Positions 3,017 to 51,449 of a DNA stretch of 64,000 nt are shown here, one piece after another. Numbering within the stretch: position 1 is the first letter of the stretch; every line of letters starts with the position of its first letter. Made by a program: the position numbers and the translations under genes. The notes beneath the pieces were generated by a model that was not told the origin of the DNA, did not search any database, and worked only from the letters and a program-made list of their open reading frames with translations. The stretch comes from a virus (Duplodnaviria > Caudoviricetes). Location of the stretch: IMG/VR virus record IMGVR_UViG_3300009148_000002, positions 10,993 to 74,992 of that record. The stretch is one strand, 5' to 3'.

Positions 3017-3710
3017 AGTGGCCGGTTAATCCAACGCGCTCCGCTACCCGCTTGTAATCATCCGGCGTGTTCATGTAGCGCCTCAGAAACCTAAACGGCT
3101 TGCCAGCCTCATGCGCCGTGATTTCGTTGAATAAGGTGTGCTTATCTTTCCACTGTTCTTGCATCAGTTTGGCTACTGATATTTCAACCAGTAGTTCGTG
3201 CCACTTGGTTGCCGTTTTCCAGCAGGTGTCGTAGAAGTTTTTGATGAACGAGGCTTCGATTCGTTGCGGCGCGAAGAACATTACGTCGGTCAGATAGGGA
3301 TAGTGCGCGAAGCCCTTGTGGCCTTTGATCTGAGCGGGCGGCACGCGGCCCGGCAGTGCGCAGAATATCTTCTCGCCGGCGAATATCTGCTCTGCCTTGG
3401 ATTTGATGTCTGGCGATAGGATCAAGAACCTCTGGCTGATTTTGATTGATATGTCCGCGCCGGTTTGCTGGCCGAATGTGATAGCGTTGACGATGGCCTG
3501 AACATCGCCGCCGAAGTGCCCGCGCCGCTCGCGTGATTGGTAGTATGAACAGCCGTGCGCAGCGGTTACGGCTTTGATCTTGGCCGACTCGTAGGATTTG
3601 TCATCACTGACGAGGATCGGGATGTTGCCGAAGACGGCCTTGAGCCAGCGTATGTTGAGATCGACGAAGTGCGGTAACGCATAGCTTCCAAGGCAGGCTG
3701 CGAATTTCAT
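2958..3710 (-). CDS. putative glycosyltransferase (GT2-like)
   Basis: ILVSDDxS motif; 250-aa ORF in GT island. Confidence 0.5.
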   Translation of the reverse strand: MKFAACLGSYALPHFVDLNIRWLKAVFGNIPILVSDDKSYESAKIKAVTAAHGCSYYQSRERRGHFGGDVQAIVNAITFGQQTGADISIKISQRFLILSPDIKSKAEQIFAGEKIFCALPGRVPPAQIKGHKGFAHYPYLTDVMFFAPQRIEASFIKNFYDTCWKTATKWHELLVEISVAKLMQEQWKDKHTLFNEITAHEAGKPFRFLRRYMNTPDDYKRVAERVGLTGHFSTSEWRKLEPKYLVRPMA

Positions 3711-3857
3711 TCAGGCGCATTGTCTTCAAAAATCATTGCCTGAGAAAAAATTGGCGGGGCGAATTCGGTGTCGCGAACAACACTCACACCACCGCACGGC
3801 CTCCATCCATCGGAGAGCAATCTATTAACTTCGTCTTCGAGCACAAGCGGTTCTGAT

Positions 3858-4148
3858 TCACTGAGGATTTTGTATTTCATCTGTCGCTCGTCTCTTTCGT
3901 TTTTTAGGATTCAGCAATGCGCGAGCGTCGTTGATCGTGCTCCAGTTTAAGTCCTGATGAACCGGGATGCGTGCTGCTGCGACCTCGGCCCATGCGATTG
4001 TTCTCTGCAACATGCTACGTAATTGCCGCTTGTCTTTAGCAAGCGATTTTATTTCGCAGCGGCAAGCAGGACACGCCAAGCAAACGCATTTGCCGTGTGA
4101 TATTTTCTCGAAGTGTTTTATTGGAGAATTTCTTGGTGCCGGTGTCAT
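3858..4148 (-). CDS. hypothetical protein
   Basis: ATGA-coupled to upstream minus-strand ORF; Cys cluster. Confidence 0.4.
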   Translation of the reverse strand: MTPAPRNSPIKHFEKISHGKCVCLACPACRCEIKSLAKDKRQLRSMLQRTIAWAEVAAARIPVHQDLNWSTINDARALLNPKKRKRRATDEIQNPQ

Positions 4149-4336
4149 AAAAGTTTCATTCCCTCTCTCATCGCCGCGAAGTCCTGTCGATATTCCGGCG
4201 TGACGTTCTCAACGTCCTCGATGCTGTCCGCTTCAAGATCGCGCTTCGTCGATTCGTCCACCCATCTCAACGCGGCATCGAGCGCGGATTTGAGAACCGC
4301 GTTCTGCGCACGAAGCTCTGAGTGGTCAGGATTCAT
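4145..4336 (-). CDS. hypothetical protein
   Basis: Coupled overlaps on both sides. Confidence 0.5.
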   Translation of the reverse strand: MNPDHSELRAQNAVLKSALDAALRWVDESTKRDLEADSIEDVENVTPEYRQDFAAMREGMKLL

Positions 4337-4629
4337 TTACACGGCACGATCATTACGTGGAACAATTCGCCCTGAATGCTGTTCGCAATGTGATGCCGCC
4401 GCAACTCCGTCAGCAATCGCGCTTCGCACATCGGCATAGACTCGGATGAGTCGATAGCGAACTCTGCCATGATGACCACTCGCCTTGAAGCCGGCTTGGC
4501 AAACCACGGGTCTGGCGTCGGCAGTGTCCAAGGTTGAGGTTGAGGCGTTGTGGAGCAGCCGCAGAGAAGCATGACCGACATGGCGATTAGGATTCGTTGC
4601 ACGTCATCTTTCCGAACTCGCGTCGCCAT
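4333..4629 (-). CDS. small putative lipoprotein
   Basis: Hydrophobic stretch ending LLCGC then Pro-rich segment; start uncertain. Confidence 0.45.
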   Translation of the reverse strand: MATRVRKDDVQRILIAMSVMLLCGCSTTPQPQPWTLPTPDPWFAKPASRRVVIMAEFAIDSSESMPMCEARLLTELRRHHIANSIQGELFHVMIVPCK

Positions 4630-5700: not shown

Positions 5701-7074
5701 TCAGGCTGGAGCCGTCTGCTTCACTGACGCAACCGCCTTGGCAACGACGGCCTTCTTCACCTTCTGCCGTGCCGCAACAATAACGTGAATCATCGGTGCT
5801 CTCACTATCATGGCATCGCTCGCCACGATGAAGTATTTCGAGAGTTCGGCCCTCCACCATTCGGCATCTTTCTGAATCAGGTGCGCGTTTCGCCCATCCG
5901 CTAGGAATTTCTTGGACGGAGCCATGTTGATGATGAAGTAGCCGACGCGCTTGACGCAGCGTTTCAAGTCGGACAGCACGTATTCGAGTTTGTCTGGCTC
6001 AATGTGTTCGAGCACGTCGCTGCAAACCACAAGATCGGCAGGGCGCGGCGGTTCTTCCTTGCCGGGGATACATGGGTCGAATTCCCAAATTGGCCAGGGT
6101 AATGCCTTAGCGAGCATTCCTTTTCCGCAACCAAAATCAAGGACACTTAACACCGGACACTCATCCGTCTTCAGCTTCTCAACGAGCTTGATAACCGTCT
6201 CCGCATGTCGCCCGCCGCCAATGCCGTAGCAAATGTCATCCGCGTGGAGCTTCTTGTTGAGTTCGCAATAGTCAGAGGAAATCAGCGTCGGCTTGCTGAA
6301 GCTCACGAAGCCTTTCTTGTCATTCTTGCGAACGTAGTTGCGGGCGAGATGTTGAACCAACCCTTCGCCGTAAAACTTCACCGTCACGTCCGGCATCATG
6401 TCCAGTTCGTGAAACGTGTTCTTGGCAGGCTCCAACATGGCGGGCGTGGTGATGTATTCCTTGCCGTCGTATTCGAGCTTGTAAGAATCCTTCGGCTGGT
6501 TCGGATGCTCGGCGGCGTGCTTACCGTATTTCTCACTCTGGTTGCCGTCCATGCCAAAGACATGCAGATCGGTGAATCCAAGGAAGCGGGCCATCGTCAG
6601 CGTGCGAACGCCTGCGCTACAGCCTCCAGTTAGCGCGTGCTCTCCGTGAGGCAACAAGCGCAACCCATCTTCACTTGTGTCGAAGATGTGCCAGAGCTTC
6701 ACGTTGTAACCAGACAGATGCTCGATGAGCTTGGGTGAGCACGTCGAGGCGATGAGATATTCGGTTTCCTTTTGCGGCTGCCCAATGAGCTTGATTTTGT
6801 GTTCTCGCGGGTCAACGTCGATGTGCCACGTCGGAATGATTCCACGATCCACAAGAAACTTGTGAGCACCGGAACAGGTCAGCACGTACTTGAACTTCTT
6901 GATTTCCTCCCAAGTGTCGTTGAGCGATGGCCCGAAGTTGACGAGCGCAATCGGATCGGTGCGTTTTTCCAAGTGCGGCGTGACGCGCTCTTTGACGCGG
7001 GCGGTGTTCGATTTTATCTGTAAATCACGAAAATCGTGGGACACGCAGTAACCGATCTTTAGCGGTTCTTCCAT
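5701..7074 (-). CDS. MptE/Maf (DUF115)-like domain fused to class I SAM methyltransferase
   Basis: N-half: NFGPSL, TCSGAH, IDVDPR, ASTCSP, GFTDLHVFGMD; C-half: VLDFGCGKG, DVLEHIE. ATG 7074 preferred; track extends to 7125. Confidence 0.72.
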   Translation of the reverse strand: MEEPLKIGYCVSHDFRDLQIKSNTARVKERVTPHLEKRTDPIALVNFGPSLNDTWEEIKKFKYVLTCSGAHKFLVDRGIIPTWHIDVDPREHKIKLIGQPQKETEYLIASTCSPKLIEHLSGYNVKLWHIFDTSEDGLRLLPHGEHALTGGCSAGVRTLTMARFLGFTDLHVFGMDGNQSEKYGKHAAEHPNQPKDSYKLEYDGKEYITTPAMLEPAKNTFHELDMMPDVTVKFYGEGLVQHLARNYVRKNDKKGFVSFSKPTLISSDYCELNKKLHADDICYGIGGGRHAETVIKLVEKLKTDECPVLSVLDFGCGKGMLAKALPWPIWEFDPCIPGKEEPPRPADLVVCSDVLEHIEPDKLEYVLSDLKRCVKRVGYFIINMAPSKKFLADGRNAHLIQKDAEWWRAELSKYFIVASDAMIVRAPMIHVIVAARQKVKKAVVAKAVASVKQTAPA

Positions 7075-7103
7075 CGTCAGCCGCTTATCTTTAGTTGTTT
7101 CGC

Positions 7104-8279
7104 TCACGATATTATGGTTCCCCAAGAACGGGCTTTGACGGGAACGGCTGCAACCTCAGCGAATTCCGCCTCAATCATAGTGCACATAAGGCTCTTGTCT
7201 GGATTGGCGTCCGTGGCGAAGCCGTAGCGAAAGCGGATGTTGTTGAAGTTGCCCGCGCCGGAAAGCGTCCACGCTCCGCCAGTCGGGGCGAGAGCGTAAT
7301 GCTTGCGCTTGTAAATGCCTGTCGTCGTTCCAGCCACGGCAGTCCCATCGTAAACAGTATCCACCGTGCCATTGTCGTTTAATTTGAAAATCTCATCGGA
7401 TGCGCCCGTGCCTGCGGCGAAGAATTCTGCTATCACTTCCACACCCCTAGGCGCAACAGTCGGCGTGCTGATGCCGGATGCCGGCCCGTACACGCACTCG
7501 ACGTAATCGGTGACGTTCGGCGGGGCCACGATCCGAATGTGATCGTCCGTGTCAGGCGTCGTATCATCGAGCGGAACTTCATCAACGAGTTGATAGGCTG
7601 TGGTGGTGGCATTGGTGATGTCCGTGGTGGTATCGCCTCGCCGGAAGTCCGCCGCGCTAGCCACATTGTGCGTGCCGTCGGATGTGGGCACGAAATGGTT
7701 CACGTAACCCGCGCCGATTGGATAGTCAGCGGCGGTGCCGGACAAAACAAAATCATCAATAAAATAATCCGCCGTTATGTTGTTGCACAAGAATGCCAGC
7801 GAGGCTGCCGCAATGCTAACTGAAGTCGTCTGCCCTAAATCCGTGCCATCAACTTTTGCATCGAATGCTTTTACACCGGCTGTCATATCGAACTTGAAAT
7901 CAATCCGATACCACACGCCGGTCGTAACGCTCACTCCTGACGCACCAAACGAAGCGGGGTTGCTACCAGTACCGCAGTAGAGTTTTGTATCCGATTGATT
8001 AAATGCCAACCCGCCAATGAGAGATTGACCGAACAAGTAAGTATTCGCGCTGGGGAGTGTGGCAAAGCGGATGTAAAACCGCCCAACTGAAACTGTCGGA
8101 ACAGTAATGTTAACATTTGCTGTTTTGGAAGAGCCGGAAGGATTGACACGCAGGGATCGGTTGCCCGTGCGAACGGTCGTCGTAGATATAGCGCAGTCAG
8201 TCGCCCAATGTTGGCCTACAGCCCCGCCAACCGAACCAAGCTGGCCGCATTCAAATCCGCAACACAGGACAGAATTCAC
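7104..8279 (-). CDS. virion structural protein, concanavalin/LamG-like beta-sandwich
   Basis: CGFECG start, TTGVWYRIDFKFD and YFIDDFVL beta-sandwich motifs, Thr/Gly-rich; GTG 8279 preferred start. Confidence 0.55.
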   Translation of the reverse strand: MNSVLCCGFECGQLGSVGGAVGQHWATDCAISTTTVRTGNRSLRVNPSGSSKTANVNITVPTVSVGRFYIRFATLPSANTYLFGQSLIGGLAFNQSDTKLYCGTGSNPASFGASGVSVTTGVWYRIDFKFDMTAGVKAFDAKVDGTDLGQTTSVSIAAASLAFLCNNITADYFIDDFVLSGTAADYPIGAGYVNHFVPTSDGTHNVASAADFRRGDTTTDITNATTTAYQLVDEVPLDDTTPDTDDHIRIVAPPNVTDYVECVYGPASGISTPTVAPRGVEVIAEFFAAGTGASDEIFKLNDNGTVDTVYDGTAVAGTTTGIYKRKHYALAPTGGAWTLSGAGNFNNIRFRYGFATDANPDKSLMCTMIEAEFAEVAAVPVKARSWGTIIS

Positions 8280-34207: not shown

Positions 34208-35881
34208 TTAGACTGCCGTGTAGTAATCGTCGTAGCTGCCGGATTTGCCGGTGTGGTCCGGCACTTCATCATTGAAGCCTTCCAAGATGACGGAGTTGGC
34301 CGGGCATTCCACTATGGCCGTCCACGTCACCGAGTTCATCTGGACGGTTTGAATCGCATTCTTCATCACGCACGCCCATCCGGTGCTGATCTTCGACAGG
34401 TCTTTGATGTCGCCCGTTCGGCTCTCCACGCGGTTGGAGTCAATCAGCCCAAGATACATCGTGTTGAAGTCGAGGAACCACAGGACGTTGCCGGCTCGGT
34501 CCACGCCGCCCGCCTGCGCGGTCGCCTTCATGTCGTCGAAGAAGTGATGAGTGACGACGTTGAGCGTCACACCAGCCGGATTGATGAGATGATAGCGGTC
34601 GTAGGTGAATCCGAGATCGCCCTTGAGGGCGAATTCGGTGTTCATCCGCATTGTGTCGATGGATTCGTTCTTGAAGTAAGCGATGAACGCCCGCTGCAAG
34701 TTCGCCCGCGTGGTGCGGTCGGTGAACACGTCGATGGTTTCGCCATTGCCGCCGTTGTCCGAACGCGACCGGCTCAGTGAGTAGATCAGTTCAAACAATT
34801 CGTGCAGGTTGAGCGTGTTGCCTTGCAGGTCGAATACGCGACCGCATTCGGCCAACTGCTCGTACCAGCCGATTGCGTTGGCGCGTTTGCCAACGCAGCG
34901 GCCTTCGTTCGGCAGATACAAGTCGCCGGACGACGCCGTTTCGATGTTGTCGAGCGAACGATACAGATTGAGGGTTTGATTGCTGGAAATCCGCTTGTTC
35001 CAGAACAACGCTTCCATCTGAGTGCGCTGGAAATCTGTGTAGATTTGCGCGTTGAGCTTGGCGAGCGGGATGTCGCCGAACTTGGCAAAGAACGCATTGC
35101 TCTTTTGCAGGTCGGCGAAGTATCCGCCATAAAACTCATCCCAACAGGTCGTGTAGCGGCTGGTTTGAATGTAGAACGGAACGGATTTAAGTCCGTTCAA
35201 TCCCGGAATCTGTTCGCAGAACGAGTCAAAATCACTGACGTTGTTCGCGCCGCGAGTCATAAACCCTTCCGTCGGGTTTTCCACCTTGGCCGCAGCCGTG
35301 AAGCTGCTGTTCATGGCAGCCAGCGAGAGCCGGACGCGAGCGCCCACAACCTCTGCTCCAAGCACACGATACATCGTGCGCGTCACGCTACCACCAGAAC
35401 TCACGCCGTTCGCAAACACGACCGTCTTGGTGTTGAACCAGCGGATGTCAAGCGGAATGCCCTGATTCGAGTAAGCGTCAACCTGCCAATCGGGCGTGCC
35501 GCCCGGATCAGACCCATTATCGAACAGCCAATAGTTCGTGTTGATGACGGATTGCTGGTCGGCCATGATGAACGGCTCCACGTTGAACTTCGTCTGGAAA
35601 TCGTCCATCGGCAGCTTGCGCAAGCTCTTGGTCTTGACGCGGCTGTTGGCCATGAGGAATTCCCACAGGCCGTTGACGCGCGTACCGCACGCCTTCAACT
35701 CGAATTGCGAAACGAGCAACGACTGCATGTTGCGAAAATCGCCGTCATCGTTGGTGAAGATGTCGGCGAGCGTGTCCGCTGTTGCCGTTGCGATGTTACA
35801 GGCTGTGACGGTGCCACAGCGCTTGATGTCAGTCCCGATTGCCGGGACGCACTTCTCAAATAGGTTGGTTGCAATTGCCAT
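34208..35881 (-). CDS. major capsid protein
   Basis: 557 aa after portal and scaffold, followed by a strong terminator; ALFWNKR and GWYEQL motifs fit HK97-fold capsids (assignment mainly positional). Confidence 0.75.
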   Translation of the reverse strand: MAIATNLFEKCVPAIGTDIKRCGTVTACNIATATADTLADIFTNDDGDFRNMQSLLVSQFELKACGTRVNGLWEFLMANSRVKTKSLRKLPMDDFQTKFNVEPFIMADQQSVINTNYWLFDNGSDPGGTPDWQVDAYSNQGIPLDIRWFNTKTVVFANGVSSGGSVTRTMYRVLGAEVVGARVRLSLAAMNSSFTAAAKVENPTEGFMTRGANNVSDFDSFCEQIPGLNGLKSVPFYIQTSRYTTCWDEFYGGYFADLQKSNAFFAKFGDIPLAKLNAQIYTDFQRTQMEALFWNKRISSNQTLNLYRSLDNIETASSGDLYLPNEGRCVGKRANAIGWYEQLAECGRVFDLQGNTLNLHELFELIYSLSRSRSDNGGNGETIDVFTDRTTRANLQRAFIAYFKNESIDTMRMNTEFALKGDLGFTYDRYHLINPAGVTLNVVTHHFFDDMKATAQAGGVDRAGNVLWFLDFNTMYLGLIDSNRVESRTGDIKDLSKISTGWACVMKNAIQTVQMNSVTWTAIVECPANSVILEGFNDEVPDHTGKSGSYDDYYTAV

Positions 35882-41370: not shown

Positions 41371-42879
41371 ATGCCCCTGCATCCCGACGGCTACTGGATA
41401 CCCAATCTCTCACCCAAGCAGATAGCCATTCAAAACAACCGAGCGCGTTATCAGTTGGTTTCTGGCCCGCGTTTGAGCGGCAAGTCGTGGGGTGTTGAGC
41501 ACGCCGTCGTGAAGCACCTGTGGATTACGAAGAATGCTCGCATGGGCGCGTTCGCTCGCACGATCAAGAGTGCAAAAGTGGGTGGTTCTTACGACGATCT
41601 AACAAAGCTCATCATTCCAGAGTGGCTATCTGCGAATTTAACCGGCGTGAACGCGAGCATCCGCTTCGAGTACTCGATTCCACCAAAACAGATGGGTGAT
41701 ACGCGGACGAACTACTTCAAAATACGCAATTATTGGGGCGGCGAATCTGAGTTCTACCTTTTCTCGTTGGATTACGACGACGACATTGAAGAAAAGGTGA
41801 AAAACACGCGGTTCTCCGGCTTCTGGTTTATCGAGCTAACGAACTTCGACAAGCGGGAAGTGTTTTCCGCAACCGTCCAGCAGTTGCGTATGCCTGGATT
41901 GCCGTGGAAAGAGCACCTGTGGATAGCGGACACGAATCCCGACTACATACTCGGAGAGGATAGCTGGATTTACAAGCTGTTCTACGAAAAACAGGGCTAC
42001 GATCCGGTGGTGGACAAAGAGGAAATCGAAAATCTGAGCGTCATCGAAGTGATGATTGACGATAACCCGTTCCTTGAGCCACAGGCCATCAGGAGCCTCA
42101 AGGCTAACTACGCGTACAGCCCGGAAAAGACGGCGGCTTACATCTTTGGCAAGTGGGTTAAGGGAATGCGCGATGGACATTTCTCAGATGTGCTCTTGCC
42201 GAACATCCATTTTCAAGGTGACGTGAGCAGCAACGATTCAGCGAAGTGGCAAATCATCGTGCCCACAGAGCAGACTATGGAACTAATGACAGGTTGGGAC
42301 TTGGGCGATGTCAACCACTCGGCACACATCGCTCAGAAGCGCCCGATTGATAACGACGAATACGCTTACGATTTCATCGACGAACTGTTCTGCATTGATC
42401 GGCAAGTCAGCATTCGAGAATTCACCGAGGCGTTCTTGGAGCGCATGGATCATTGGGAAAAATTCATGCGCGAGGCGTTTGGGCGAACAGTGTTTCGATG
42501 GCGGCACTGGTCTGACACGTCGGCGTTCAGCTACAAAAGCGCGGTTGGCGGCGATGAAGAAAAGATCGTGCGCAATGTTTCAAAAGGGCGGATCACTCTG
42601 TTGGGAATCGACAAGCGAAGTGTCACTGGCCGCGTGGATCAAGTGAGACGGCTGCTACACGAGCAGCGCATATTTGTGTCTGCCAACCTAACGCACACAA
42701 CCGTCATGCTGAAGACTCTCTACAAAGGCAAAAGCAAGTTGGACTTTATTCTGCCGGCCACGCTGAAGCATTCGTTTGACTCGTTCAGCTACCTGCTTCG
42801 CGGCGAGGAACCTCACGATCTTGAGCGCGGCCTTCCTCAGACGGAGCAGCCGGCGAGGTTGGTGCTGGTGCCGGCGTAA
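41371..42879 (+). CDS. terL: terminase large subunit
   Basis: PNLSPKQ, Walker A SGPRLSGKS, Walker B FWFIE, DTNP coupling motif, GKW, RNase H-like GWDLG ... HSFDSFSYL. Confidence 0.92.
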   Translation: MPLHPDGYWIPNLSPKQIAIQNNRARYQLVSGPRLSGKSWGVEHAVVKHLWITKNARMGAFARTIKSAKVGGSYDDLTKLIIPEWLSANLTGVNASIRFEYSIPPKQMGDTRTNYFKIRNYWGGESEFYLFSLDYDDDIEEKVKNTRFSGFWFIELTNFDKREVFSATVQQLRMPGLPWKEHLWIADTNPDYILGEDSWIYKLFYEKQGYDPVVDKEEIENLSVIEVMIDDNPFLEPQAIRSLKANYAYSPEKTAAYIFGKWVKGMRDGHFSDVLLPNIHFQGDVSSNDSAKWQIIVPTEQTMELMTGWDLGDVNHSAHIAQKRPIDNDEYAYDFIDELFCIDRQVSIREFTEAFLERMDHWEKFMREAFGRTVFRWRHWSDTSAFSYKSAVGGDEEKIVRNVSKGRITLLGIDKRSVTGRVDQVRRLLHEQRIFVSANLTHTTVMLKTLYKGKSKLDFILPATLKHSFDSFSYLLRGEEPHDLERGLPQTEQPARLVLVPA

Positions 42880-48430: not shown

Positions 48431-48667
48431 CTACAGCACCCGCTCGCTGTGTTTGATTTCGACGCATCGGATTTTGGGTTTTTCCAGCCAGTCCTTAAAG
48501 AACCATCTGGCATATTCAAGTGCCTGCGATTGGTTGTCGCGCTGCCCGACGAGGCATTCCCATTTGGCGTTCGGTTTCTGCCACTCGACCGCGTATGCTG
48601 TAGAACACTTCATGGAGCGAACGGCGACCCGCGCCGTTCGAGAGTTGGTCTTGGATTTCTTGCTCAT
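48431..48667 (-). CDS. hypothetical basic protein
   Basis: C-terminal 78 aa of track ORF 48431-49189; preceded by a coupled 15-codon leader ORF at 48711. Confidence 0.5.
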   Translation of the reverse strand: MSKKSKTNSRTARVAVRSMKCSTAYAVEWQKPNAKWECLVGQRDNQSQALEYARWFFKDWLEKPKIRCVEIKHSERVL

Positions 48668-48717
48668 ACATTTTTCTCGCCGTCGCTCATGGCGGCGTTG
48701 TAAAACTTCATTGACAA

Positions 48718-48801
48718 AGGCTATCACCGTCGGCGGCGGAGTCAAACATTTTTCGCGCAAATGATTTTGTTGCTTGACAATCACTGCGGCGTTGATACCT
48801 T
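48718..48801. promoter_or_regulatory. divergent leaderless promoters
   Basis: Minus: TTGACT-16-TAGCCT-6 nt-ATG 48711; plus: TTGACA (48774)-16-TGn TACCTT-7 nt-ATG 48809. Confidence 0.6.
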
Positions 48802-48808
48802 CGCGTGA

Positions 48809-49096
48809 ATGACAGCAGCCGAAAAGAGAATCGAGATCGCAGAGTTGGATGAATGGGTCAGAGGTTCTGTTGACTCTGTGTGGTGGTCGAAGCTCTGGAA
48901 AGACAGTCTCAGTTACACTCACGCAACGCAGCACGATCTTCCAGACTACCTCAACTCCCGCGACGCGATTGTGCCGGTGCTTGAGAAGCAGCCATTGGGC
49001 ATCCGCTTGTGGTTTATCGAGAACACGGACATTTTCACAACGCCCGAAGAACTGTGCGACGCGCTGATTCGTGAAACCGGCAAGTGGAAAGACTAA
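48809..49096 (+). CDS. hypothetical phage protein
   Basis: LPDYLNSRDAI.PVLEK pattern common in phage small proteins. Confidence 0.65.
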   Translation: MTAAEKRIEIAELDEWVRGSVDSVWWSKLWKDSLSYTHATQHDLPDYLNSRDAIVPVLEKQPLGIRLWFIENTDIFTTPEELCDALIRETGKWKD

Positions 49097-49107
49097 CAAA
49101 ATGAGAT

Positions 49108-49303
49108 GTTCTTTGAATGTGAATCGGACGGAGTATTCAACGGCCAGAAATGGCGGTAAACTTTTCCGTGAGTTTGTCACGGACAACAACGGGCTTGCTA
49201 GCTACCTGCCCGTTTGGACAAAGCCAACAAGTTGCGCTGATTCGATTTCAGCGGGGCGGAATTGCTCAGAGGTACGACGAACTCCGATTCACATTCAGCG
49301 AAC
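49108..49303 (+). ncRNA. putative structured RNA unit D3
   Basis: 21-position stem GTTCTTTGAATGTGAATCGGA / TCCGATTCACATTCAGCGAAC enclosing GCCA-GAAA-TGGC, TCCGTGA/TCACGGA, AACGGGC/GCCCGTT, TTGG/CCAA, CGCTGA/TCAGCG. Confidence 0.65.
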
Positions 49304-49365
49304 ACCAAACAAAATGGTTGACTCCAAAATCAGGTTGGGTATGTTGGTTGCGTTCGGATGCTGGA

Positions 49366-49600
49366 GTGAAAACCAGCTAACTGTAAGTCTCGAACGTAAG
49401 ACCACTTTTGGCCGTTCAGTCATGCGAAGCCGCGAGGCTCGCACCGCAGTTAGCGGTTTTTCACGACTGAGCGGCCTTTCCATTTTTAAGGCACCGAACC
49501 GTGAAACGGCTTCATGCCATACGGTCGCCGGAACATGCGCGGCTCCTTCGCGAAGGATGCTGCGGCTAGGGCACGCGAGGAAACAAACATCTCACCGGCC
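49366..49600 (+). ncRNA. putative structured RNA with pseudoknot/switch topology
   Basis: Stems 49366-83/49447-64 and 49410-21/49465-76 cross; GNRA hairpins (GCGA, GAAA) and TCCTT/AAGGA hairpin follow. Confidence 0.55.
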
Positions 49601-49620
49601 AACGTGGAAGGAAAACGACA

Positions 49621-49826
49621 GTGCTTTGAACTGCTGGGCCTCGTGGTGCAATGTAAAGACACGGGCTAGTGTAAAGATACGGGTGTCGGCGTGCTGCTGC
49701 CCCGGCTTGCGGACATTTCGCCGCAAGACTCATCGTTGTGATGAGGTTTCCAGCCTGCCAAACGGGACACAACACCGATGCGGCTTGCGAGTTCAAATCC
49801 CGCCGAAGGCCGCCAGTTCAGAGCAT
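49621..49826 (+). ncRNA. unit D4: tRNA-like shell with large insert inside a boxA-like stem
   Basis: 13-bp stem GTGCTTTGAACTG/CAGTTCAGAGCAT; GGCCTCG...D-arm-like; GCGAG-TTCAAAT-CCCGC T-arm; CGAAGGCC-G-CCA. Confidence 0.5.
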
Positions 49827-49922
49827 TGCGGTTTTCCTTTGCTCTCTGACTTCTTTCGATACCCCTACTCTAAGGGGTTGGGGTTTCTTTCTTCTCTCGT
49901 TTCGTTTTAATTATTATCCAGC

Positions 49923-50351
49923 ATGAAGCGCCTGACAAACAAACAACCTATGAAATCCATATACCTAAACGTAAAGAAACAACACATCGACGAGTCAACT
50001 AAAAAGGACTCGAAACACTGCATGATCGCCGACGCCATTCGTTCGCGATTTGAACAGGCGAAGTACATCAAAGTGGACACGCAATCCATTCGGTTCACTG
50101 ACTTAAAAACCGGCAAGCGTTATCAGTTCTTCACTCCGACGAAAGCACAGGCTGCGATTCTGGCGTTTGATCGCGGCGACGCAGTTAAGCCGTTCCACTT
50201 TCAACTTGTGGACGGCACACAGAGGCCGATGGGTTGGCAGGCAACGCACCCAAATTGTAATCGCAAAGGCAAGAAATACCGCAAGACAGGATTGAAGCGA
50301 ATCGTGGCGAAACGCGAACGCGAGTTTGGGCTTAGAATGCTAACCGCGTGA
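49923..50351 (+). CDS. hypothetical basic protein
   Basis: CMIADAIR...VDTQSIRFTD pattern; clean ORF. Confidence 0.65.
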   Translation: MKRLTNKQPMKSIYLNVKKQHIDESTKKDSKHCMIADAIRSRFEQAKYIKVDTQSIRFTDLKTGKRYQFFTPTKAQAAILAFDRGDAVKPFHFQLVDGTQRPMGWQATHPNCNRKGKKYRKTGLKRIVAKREREFGLRMLTA

Positions 50352-50899: not shown

Positions 50900-51244
50900 A
50901 TGACAACCACTCTCCAATCCAATGATAGTGGCCGAGTCGAGCAGCGCAAACACAGCCAATGGCTCAACCGACAACCTTTTATTCTGTCCGCTGAAACGCA
51001 CCAAGGCTTCAAGAACATCAAGAAGTTGCTCAACTGCAAACTGTGCGGGCACATTCTACAGGTAGGCGACAAAGCTCGCTGGGTTTACGCGAATGGCACA
51101 CCGGGTATGGTCACAGGAAATTTCTTCGTGTGCGGCGACTGTGACGACGAAGATGCCGCCGTGCTCGCCAAAGCAAAGGATCAATTCACAACGGCTGTAA
51201 CACTCGCAAAACGATGGGGAATCTATGGACCAGATTGGCAATAA
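50900..51244 (+). CDS. zinc-finger hypothetical protein
   Basis: CKLC...CGDC. Confidence 0.55.
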   Translation: MTTTLQSNDSGRVEQRKHSQWLNRQPFILSAETHQGFKNIKKLLNCKLCGHILQVGDKARWVYANGTPGMVTGNFFVCGDCDDEDAAVLAKAKDQFTTAVTLAKRWGIYGPDWQ

Positions 51245-51449
51245 CGACCTTTTACCGTGTCCATTCTGCGGCGGCAAGCCAGAGATGATTTTCAAAGGCA
51301 ATGACAGGACAGCAAAACGATCCGTAATAATCAAATGTCCTGATTGCCGATGCCAGCGCACGGATGCGGGAATACTCTCGCCGCTAACTACGCTAGCGCG
51401 TGGAGCGGTCGAACTGTGGAATAAGCGAGTCTCAGACACGCCTCACTAA
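51225..51449 (+). CDS. Lar-family restriction alleviation protein
   Basis: LLPCPFCGG...CPDC...AVELWNKR. Confidence 0.8.
   Translation: MDQIGNNDLLPCPFCGGKPEMIFKGNDRTAKRSVIIKCPDCRCQRTDAGILSPLTTLARGAVELWNKRVSDTPH

Follow-up and report, generated by a model that had tools for sequence, protein, structure and literature searches.

Large, conserved and intricately folded RNAs are rare in bacteria and phages, and those that have been described, such as GOLLD, ROOL and OLE, combine remarkable architectures with functions that are still open. Bacterial Y RNA (YrlA), which is also found on mobile elements, has a long stem ending in a tRNA-like domain. GOLLD, likewise large and ornate, is encoded by phages and prophages; one half of it is conserved and the other variable, tRNAs are sometimes embedded in its linker, and its function is unknown (PMC12286853). 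ROOL, of about 0.6 kb, is a multi-pseudoknotted RNA encoded by phages and prophages that has no known protein partner (PMC12286853). In the DRT2/Neo system, an RNA serves as template for assembling a de novo gene, and a structured non-coding RNA hides a conserved stop-free frame (PMC12483538). In this study we analysed 64,000 nucleotides of viral DNA (the window), which are bases 10993-74992 of a 74,992-bp IMG/VR virus record with a completeness rating of 100%. Between about 49107 and 49910 the window holds a densely structured tract, with a pseudoknotted core, a long helix (P5) that carries exchangeable modules, some of them tRNA-shaped, at its tip, and a reading frame free of stop codons. 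With a probability of about 0.65, we consider this tract to be a member of an undescribed family of large modular structured phage RNAs, accompanied by an orphan copy of a module of that family. GOLLD and ROOL are the nearest in kind; they are loosely comparable, and a match in Rfam 15 is absent.

Like GOLLD (RF01998), the new RNA is large and ornate, has conserved and variable parts and embeds a tRNA-like element. It differs from GOLLD in giving no covariance-model match, even with E up to 10, in having no adjacent tRNA genes, in a conserved part of only about 150-170 nt, and in carrying the tRNA-like element at a defined helix tip. To our knowledge, GOLLD has not been reported to keep an open frame. 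With ROOL (RF03087) the family shares a length of ~0.6 kb, pseudoknots, a phage origin and the lack of a protein partner, but it does not match the model, lies away from tRNA islands and has a modular tip and an open frame. No covariance-model match was obtained to OLE, HEARO or any other Rfam 15 family. The resemblance to transfer-messenger RNA (tmRNA) lies in a tRNA-like shell (acceptor stem, T-arm and NCCA) with a large insert for the anticodon arm and pseudoknots nearby, in G3.U70 and A73 in two modules (L018 and L002; related loci are given L numbers throughout), and in a match of the Rfam tmRNA model to the 17-nt T-arm of L017. In contrast to tmRNA, the shell is internal, capped onto P5 and missing in several members, and ARAGORN finds no tmRNA. 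A tmRNA-type tag frame with a resume codon was not found, and the short open reading frame (ORF) at 49514-49669 is unconserved (L016 has AAG and a stop). Membership among the tRNAs received no support, as neither ARAGORN with default settings nor the Rfam tRNA model called a canonical cloverleaf. YrlA is similar in its long stem with a tRNA-like domain at the end, whereas the new family has no Rfam match to it and no Ro/TROVE gene in the window genome; here the long helix leads on into the acceptor-like stem and has a conserved core with a pseudoknot on its 5' side. The likeness to DRT2 is a structured non-coding RNA with a hidden stop-free frame; the differences are that no reverse transcriptase occurs in five carrier records, that the element belongs to phages and not to a host defence system, and that its frame covers the full length of the RNA up to an end within the tail.

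Relatives and the conserved core

The original prediction, made from the sequence alone, took positions 49108-49826 for a ~720-nt non-coding RNA or cluster of RNAs of a possibly new class, to be judged by its relatives in viral metagenomes and by covariation. Relatives were indeed found, and the family now comprises 16 distinct sequences in phage and metagenome contigs. With the translated 279-aa ORF of the tract as query, five metagenome "proteins" were recovered, each matched over part of its length only, and their contigs share DNA with the window in a mosaic fashion (blastn). A block of ~135 nt (49492-49630) is common to all five at 80-87% identity, as is a second block of ~35 nt (49811-49852), and the sequence between the two varies by locus. 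HMMER searches with the translated core gave seven further clusters, and DNA patterns led to L010, L014 and L015 and then to L037-L039; the window, L010, L037, L038 and L039 were located through their DNA and not through called genes. Other searches were less productive. An 18-mer scan of IMG/VR returned seven loci, six of which were chance matches within coding genes, and when 185,579 species genomes were scanned with two patterns, the matches numbered 0 and 12, all 12 of them chance according to nhmmer, so that no prophage copy is known. IMG/VR searches with two neighbour proteins and the window terminase gave no relatives, blastn against the phage collection gave no match, and a protein search limited to shorter proteins returned nothing, that is, no truncated versions of the ORF. 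The family is hidden in public protein collections, where its RNA genes appear under the guise of hypothetical proteins with lengths of 148-292 aa. This is of practical relevance, since gene callers label such RNAs as hypothetical proteins of 150-290 aa.

The family's most conserved sequence is an H-type pseudoknot at 49497-49530 (plus strand, like all elements of the RNA described below). Its stem S1 (49497-49502/49521-49526) is 76-82% paired with three covarying pairs, and its stem S2 (49507-49510/49527-49530) is 100% paired, with both sides changed in three of four pairs. The pseudoknot is followed by hairpin P3 (49538-49564), which has 11 pairs, eight of them with double changes, is 96% paired and contains an invariant G.U pair and tetraloops mostly of the UUCG type. 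Hairpin P4 (49570-49600; GGGCACGCGAG...CUCACCGGCC) is long and irregular, is 95% paired with double changes in four pairs, and is still paired in the longer versions present in L014 and L019. The single-stranded joints between the core elements, GAACAUG, UAGGG and CAACAG, are highly conserved. In an alignment of 16 core sequences with 30 pairs, compared with 500 column shuffles and with slid-partner controls, 92.2% of the cells were in standard pairs, against 80.4% in the shuffles and 28-49% with slid partners. Both sides had changed in 18 of the 30 pairs (9.0 +/- 1.4 in shuffles), the covariation was 0.35 as opposed to 0.14, and none of the 500 shuffles reached the observed value. An alignment of 13 core sequences gave the same picture. 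The conservation and covariation of structure that the original prediction proposed as a check were therefore seen in the relatives. A first model, which paired GCCGG with CCGGC in a helix and GGC with GCC in an inner hairpin, was dropped, as these pairs are broken in L014, L022 and L023, whereas S2 (CGGC/GCCG) and the long P4 covary. It follows from the covariation that CCGT-GAAA-CGG (49499-49509), which is present and had been taken for a simple GNRA hairpin, is part of the pseudoknot.

P3 contains a G.U pair that does not vary, G.U pairs are common in P5, and loops of the C(UUCG)G or GNRA type occur. As such pairs and loops fit the plus strand only, a DNA-level or minus-strand reading of the fold is excluded. 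Judging from the substitution pattern, the structure is under selection as a plus-strand RNA.

Promoter, 5' domain and tail

The tract belongs to a run of small genes on the plus strand; the gene before it encodes 95 aa (48809-49096) and the gene after it 142 aa (49923-50351). Its 804 nt from 49097 to 49900 fold with -317.7 kcal/mol, compared with -274 +/- 9 in dinucleotide shuffles (z = -4.63), and the minus strand gives a similar value (z = -4.77). In a folding scan of the whole window in 107 segments of 300 nt, 49201-49500 ranked third lowest. The segment with the strongest structure in the 64 kb lies elsewhere, at 34801-35100 (z about -5.5, 12 shuffles), inside a minus-strand ORF of 557 aa (34208-35881). 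An inverted-repeat search found both long-range stems of the kind that had been anticipated, one of 22 nt and 91% complementarity (49107-49128/49283-49304) and one of 36 nt and 78% complementarity (49608-49643/49804-49839). Of the hairpins that had been named, GCCA-GAAA-TGGC is present at 49143-49154 and AGCC-GCGA-GGCT at about 49427-49438. ARAGORN with default settings found no tRNA and no tmRNA in the window, the whole 75-kb genome or any related locus, and cmscan against Rfam 15 at the gathering score gave no match in the whole window and seven related loci. With E up to 10, region 48600-50000 gave two chance matches only (NsiR1 and NPPA-AS1_3), and with E up to 5 six further loci gave only the tmRNA T-arm match in L017 and a chance match to bicoid_3. 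The proposal of a possibly new class has thus held up, as the tract is a structured RNA that is not protein-like and is absent from Rfam 15.

The anatomy is another matter. A strong promoter had been placed before the ORF at 48809; the consensus scan listed none there and instead listed a sigma70-like site inside the tract, at 49318-49345 (TTGACT, 16 nt, TATGTT). In 13 members a TTGAC(A/G) box lies 170-265 nt upstream of the core and, as read from the sequences, it is followed in most of them by an xAxxxT hexamer after 16-18 nt and then by GCGTTC(A/G)G. The gene common to the relatives begins near 49350, and it passes 49826 and runs to about 49905-49910, so that the original bounds were not kept. 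Nor is the tract one homogeneous 720-nt RNA; it can be called a cluster in so far as the orphan module (49107-49304) stands ahead of a separate promoter-driven gene (about 49350-49910). The original reading as a new large phage non-coding RNA is partly supported: it stands in substance, with its anatomy refined.

The 5' domain of the window (49350-49487), called type A, was found as an inverted repeat and has a homolog at L002:3048-3178 with 75% identity (blastn). Helix A (49366-49383/49447-49464) and helix B (49410-49421/49465-49476) interleave and form a pseudoknot, and both stay paired in L002 through double changes, as read from the sequences. A GNRA hairpin is found at 49423-49443, and a U-rich tract that resembles a terminator follows helix B. 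There are at least two unrelated types of 5' domain, and type A is common to the window and L002. A GC-rich hairpin with a U-rich tract directly upstream of the core is present in most members. At the other end, the RNA has a CU-rich 3' tail with a hairpin (49840-49910), which is conserved across members and terminates in GTTTTAAT at about 49905-49910. The tail hairpin P6 pairs CCCCU (49862-49866) with AGGGG (49873-49877), or alternatively with a second G run (49880-49884), and it covaries within the subgroup that possesses it. A terminator scan of the window passed no site. The order of 5' domain, core, P5 and tail is fixed in all members, and the length of the RNA in the family is roughly 0.5-0.7 kb.

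Helix P5 and its modules

Helix P5 joins 49608-49630 to 49817-49839 in 21 pairs, several of them G.U pairs that are possible on the plus strand only, and it was seen both as an inverted repeat and in the alignment. It is 95% paired, eight of the 21 pairs show double changes, and none of 500 shuffles was as good; taken jointly with P6, 95.4% of cells are paired and 10 of 25 pairs are doubly changed. In the window the tip of P5 carries a module of "beta" type (49631-49816) with a tRNA-shaped shell. In this shell, 49637-49643/49804-49811 form an acceptor-like stem, 49787-49803 form a T-arm with the loop TTCAAAT, and GCCA follows at 49812-49815; ~100 nt of hairpins take the place of the anticodon arm. 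A related module is present in L014. Module length ranges from 12 to 195 nt across members. L003 and L005 have flanks that are 97% identical and modules that are unrelated (186 and 123 nt), L016 equals L018 minus most of its module, and in L021 and L039 the tip is a loop only. These comparisons show that the tip of P5 is an insertion point for unrelated stem-enclosed modules. Such a natural insertion point amounts to a module-swap experiment already run by evolution, module-less members included, and together with the stop-free frame it makes the new class accessible to experiment.

The modules of the window, L014, L002, L004, L018 and L005 are tRNA-shaped. In these the acceptor-like stem stacks on P5, there are a D-like arm and a T-arm whose loop of 7 nt is of the TTCRANY type, NCCA is often present, and all of them have large inserts at the position of the anticodon arm. 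When introns were allowed, ARAGORN detected tRNA-like shells in one of 14 modules at default thresholds and in six of 14 at 85% thresholds, each with an insert of 33-54 nt (6 nt in one) and with anticodons that are unreliable. The remaining modules are plain branched rods. It had been noted originally that RNAs of the GOLLD and ROOL kind often stand beside tRNA-like elements; no tRNA genes are found near this tract, and the tRNA-like element is instead embedded in a helix of the RNA itself. The idea of a codon-anticodon contact of the T-box kind, in which CAU loops present in some modules would meet the conserved AACAUG, was rejected because other modules have no such loop.

The orphan module, of "alpha" type (49107-49304), is enclosed by a stem and contains multiple hairpins, among them a T-loop-like hairpin and GNRA loops. 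Its flanks, CTTTGAATG...CATTCAG, are the flanking motif of the modules at the P5 tip, and CTTTGAA...TTCAG[AC]G occurs twice in the 75-kb genome, both times within this tract. The orphan is homologous to the P5 module of L003 (blastn to L003:3413-3604, 73% identity). In a consensus fold these two sequences, at 61% identity, agree in 47 pairs, with compensatory changes in 22 and a break in none. A similar orphan is present in L002, where it follows the 5' domain and precedes the core. A 13-nt loop of the orphan module, UUGCUAGCUACCU, is conserved in L003 and holds the self-complementary GCUAGC (49197-49202), which could form a kissing-loop dimer. This loop is the one hint in the family of a homo-oligomeric RNA cage of the GOLLD and ROOL kind.

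The stop-free reading frame

A frame of 279 codons (49071-49910, from the ORF list) runs through the orphan module and on across all of the RNA gene; in the window it has no stop triplet over 809 nt, as compared with 15 and 10 in the other two frames. Among 13 members the frame is open for 180-294 codons in 12, from about the -35 box to well beyond P5, and it is also open in L037 (218 codons), L038 (226 codons), the window and L010, which were found through their DNA. L014 is open across core and module, and in L039 a different frame is open for 201 codons, again beginning at the promoter. Over 1529 codons there are no in-frame stop triplets versus 65 and 73 in the other frames. Gene-calling bias can account for the multiples of three seen in the spacing of members found as ORFs; as the sole cause of the open frame it fails for the window, L010, L037, L038 and L039, which were found without called genes. 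In L003 and L005 (2992-3001 of each) the RNA frame is in phase with an upstream gene of 487 and 559 aa respectively (with an LPD29 domain in L005), and the stop codon of this gene alone separates it from the RNA frame; this phase was not seen at other loci.

By several tests the 279-aa ORF looks non-coding. The codon usage of the 279-aa ORF is non-coding-like (-0.06 per codon against +0.15 +/- 0.06 for phage genes), its codon-position GC is atypical, and variability at the three codon positions is equal (0.58/0.54/0.56, and 0.43/0.41/0.33). The synonymous fraction is 0.30-0.36 where the neutral expectation is 0.26, and most single indels between members are of 1-2 nt. Homologous bases are found in different frames, namely the tail in all three phases, the alpha module between the window and L003, and L039. 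A conserved start or ribosome-binding site was not found; an in-frame ATG is lacking in L006, and the ATG that type-B loci have in common falls within the promoter spacer. AlphaFold2 with a 13-row alignment predicted the ORF product with a predicted local distance difference test score (pLDDT) of 47.8, a predicted template modelling score (pTM) of 0.20 and almost no secondary structure, and the product has no Pfam or PHROG family match. A small conserved tail peptide, suggested by a Shine-Dalgarno-like AAGGGAG and an AUG in L004 and L002, was rejected, since the AUG is absent elsewhere and the G run occurs in all three phases. It thus seems that selection acts on the absence of stops and not on protein sequence. 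The 279-aa ORF was originally set aside as a shadow translation, a view that codon-type conservation would have spoken against. Such conservation is absent, in agreement with that view, yet the frame is kept open and the ORF is no plain shadow, and the outcome falls cleanly on neither side. The persistence of a stop-free frame without detectable protein-level selection is relevant to the question of how phage operons can accommodate RNA genes alongside translation and Rho-dependent termination, or whether "non-coding" RNAs hide translated frames.

Proposed role and alternative explanations

If the tract encodes a large modular RNA, we propose that this RNA would act in trans as a folded molecule with the core as its working part. 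The core might bind a conserved host or phage factor, or it might self-assemble like GOLLD and ROOL. P5 would display interchangeable modules, and those shaped like tRNAs would probably engage tRNA-binding host factors, whether processing enzymes or tRNA-directed defence nucleases. The stop-free frame may let ribosomes traverse the element inside longer operon transcripts, the peptide itself being irrelevant, and such read-through could avoid Rho-type polarity on co-oriented downstream genes. A bolder version, which we consider unlikely, sees the RNA gene as a plug-in display scaffold. Recombination at the short CUUUGAA/UUCAGAG flanks would swap the tip of the helix carried by the conserved core between phages, and silent orphan copies (49107-49304, for example) might be a further source; changing tRNA mimics or other baits would in this way be presented to tRNA-directed host defences. 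The whole RNA would be readable by ribosomes in one frame, either as a new anti-polarity device or for a hidden product like Neo of DRT2.

A number of observations do not sit easily with a large RNA that works as a folded molecule. An open frame along the whole RNA, kept in 15 of 16 members, is not what one usually sees in a pure non-coding RNA, and it hints at translation. Counted over the variable parts of 10 independent members, with L014 left out, in-frame stops number 0 against about 41 and 49 in the other frames, and landmark distances and segment lengths differ by multiples of three. We infer that read-through may be tolerated or needed in longer operon transcripts, with the anti-polarity idea as a hypothesis, and real translation of a product whose sequence matters little is conceivable as well. 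The terminator-like hairpin upstream of the core could mean two transcripts and not one, and no partner protein recurs within 4.5 kb on each side of the loci. L037 has no core pseudoknot, owing to a 45-nt deletion, a multiple of three. Finally, only about half of the modules have a tRNA shape, which cannot therefore be an essential feature. At L037:9835-9990 it was observed that P3, P4, P5 and the open frame are retained despite the loss of the pseudoknot.

In one rival reading the element is protein-coding first, with a fast-evolving, basic and largely disordered product that has a hydrophobic C-terminus and with an mRNA that is incidentally structured. The frame, open in 12 of 13 members and in the DNA-found L037 and L038, its lack of stops in the variable parts and across the 1529 codons, the landmark spacing in multiples of three, and the failure to find truncated versions of the ORF all speak in favour of this, and the CU-rich tail yields hydrophobic C-termini in any frame. 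Nonetheless, there is no codon periodicity, the synonymous fraction is near neutral, codon usage is non-coding, single indels are mostly of 1-2 nt, and homologous bases are read in different frames (tail, L039 and the alpha module of the window and L003). In addition, no conserved start or ribosome-binding site exists, the prediction of the fold is poor (pLDDT 47.8, pTM 0.20) with no Pfam or PHROG family, and compensatory changes in the stems override amino-acid identity. We therefore regard a gene of this type as distinctly unlikely. It is improbable, too, that the tract is a long cis-acting leader, an attenuator or antitermination element for the co-oriented genes downstream, with the terminator-like hairpins as its expression platform. 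Such a leader would explain the promoter of its own, the GC-rich hairpin and U tract directly before the core in most members, and the second hairpin with a U/C-rich tail at the end, with same-strand genes close behind in every locus. The genes downstream are, however, unrelated between loci, which would be unusual for a cis-regulator, a length of 0.5-0.7 kb with a pseudoknotted core and swappable modules is far beyond the complexity of known leaders, and no site passed the terminator scan of the window.

Modules that are enclosed by stems and shuffle between loci, a terminator-like hairpin between 5' domain and core, and an orphan module outside the gene might also be expected of a cluster of separate small RNAs (5' domain, core, excised tRNA-like element and orphan module), and tRNA-like shells with NCCA could be excised by RNase P and 3' processing. 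Each locus has one promoter, though, and none lies between 5' domain and core; the order of 5' domain, core, P5 and tail is fixed in all members, and the conserved P5 of 21 pairs encloses the module and ties the core to the tail. A cluster thus appears very improbable, and least credible of all is that the tract is a DNA-level element, such as a replication origin, an attachment site with a tRNA 3' end or a palindromic mobile element, whose folds are incidental. It is true that both strands fold well, that the T-arm, acceptor 3' strand and CCA resemble tRNA-derived attP cores, and that the element is the only sequence common to unrelated phages. Against this, the G.U pairs, invariant or frequent, would correspond to A.C mismatches if it were the other strand or a duplex cruciform that folded, UUCG and GNRA loops are confined to the plus strand, and the pseudoknot is maintained by compensatory changes. 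Furthermore, no copies were found with the two patterns in the 185,579 species genomes (the 12 matches of the second pattern being chance), and the modules have both acceptor strands and not the 3' half alone. The large modular RNA remains the reading that we prefer.

Genomic context

Within 4.5 kb on either side of the loci, the only "proteins" in common are ORFs that overlap the RNA itself, and the flanking genes are unrelated between carriers. A homolog of the terminase of the window (41371-42879) is absent from four other viral records that carry the RNA, among them one that is complete at 39.9 kb. On this comparison of loci, the RNA gene is the sole thing common to otherwise unrelated phage regions. 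Same-strand genes lie closely downstream of the RNA in every locus, and the neighbours in the carriers are of the early-region or anti-defence type, of a kind that varies. In L023 a gene of the Acb2/Tad1-hairpin family, an anti-CBASS/anti-Thoeris sponge (2501-2818), follows a 3150-aa gene and lies directly upstream of the RNA. L006 has RecT upstream (1799-2914) and an RNA ligase (PF09414) downstream of the RNA (3609-4547), and the neighbours in L019 are ERF and YqaJ. In the window, a 74-aa Lar-like restriction alleviation protein (51225-51449; phrog_599, E 7e-10) is encoded 1.3 kb downstream of the RNA. Ro/TROVE (PF05731) and RNA ligase (PF09414) are absent from the genome of the window, and reverse transcriptase (PF00078) is absent from five carrier viral records, including this genome.

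The 95-aa gene upstream of the tract (48809-49096, plus strand, from the ORF list) has normal codon usage, with a coding log-likelihood of +0.21 per codon compared with +0.15 +/- 0.06 for phage genes. It has no PHROG match, and a comparison of neighbour genes among the loci found no homolog of it beside the RNA in other carriers. The other genes of the window are mostly unannotatable; one that could be assigned lies on the minus strand at 5701-7125 and encodes a 474-aa fusion of an MptE-like (6-hydroxymethylpterin diphosphokinase-like) domain and a methyltransferase domain.

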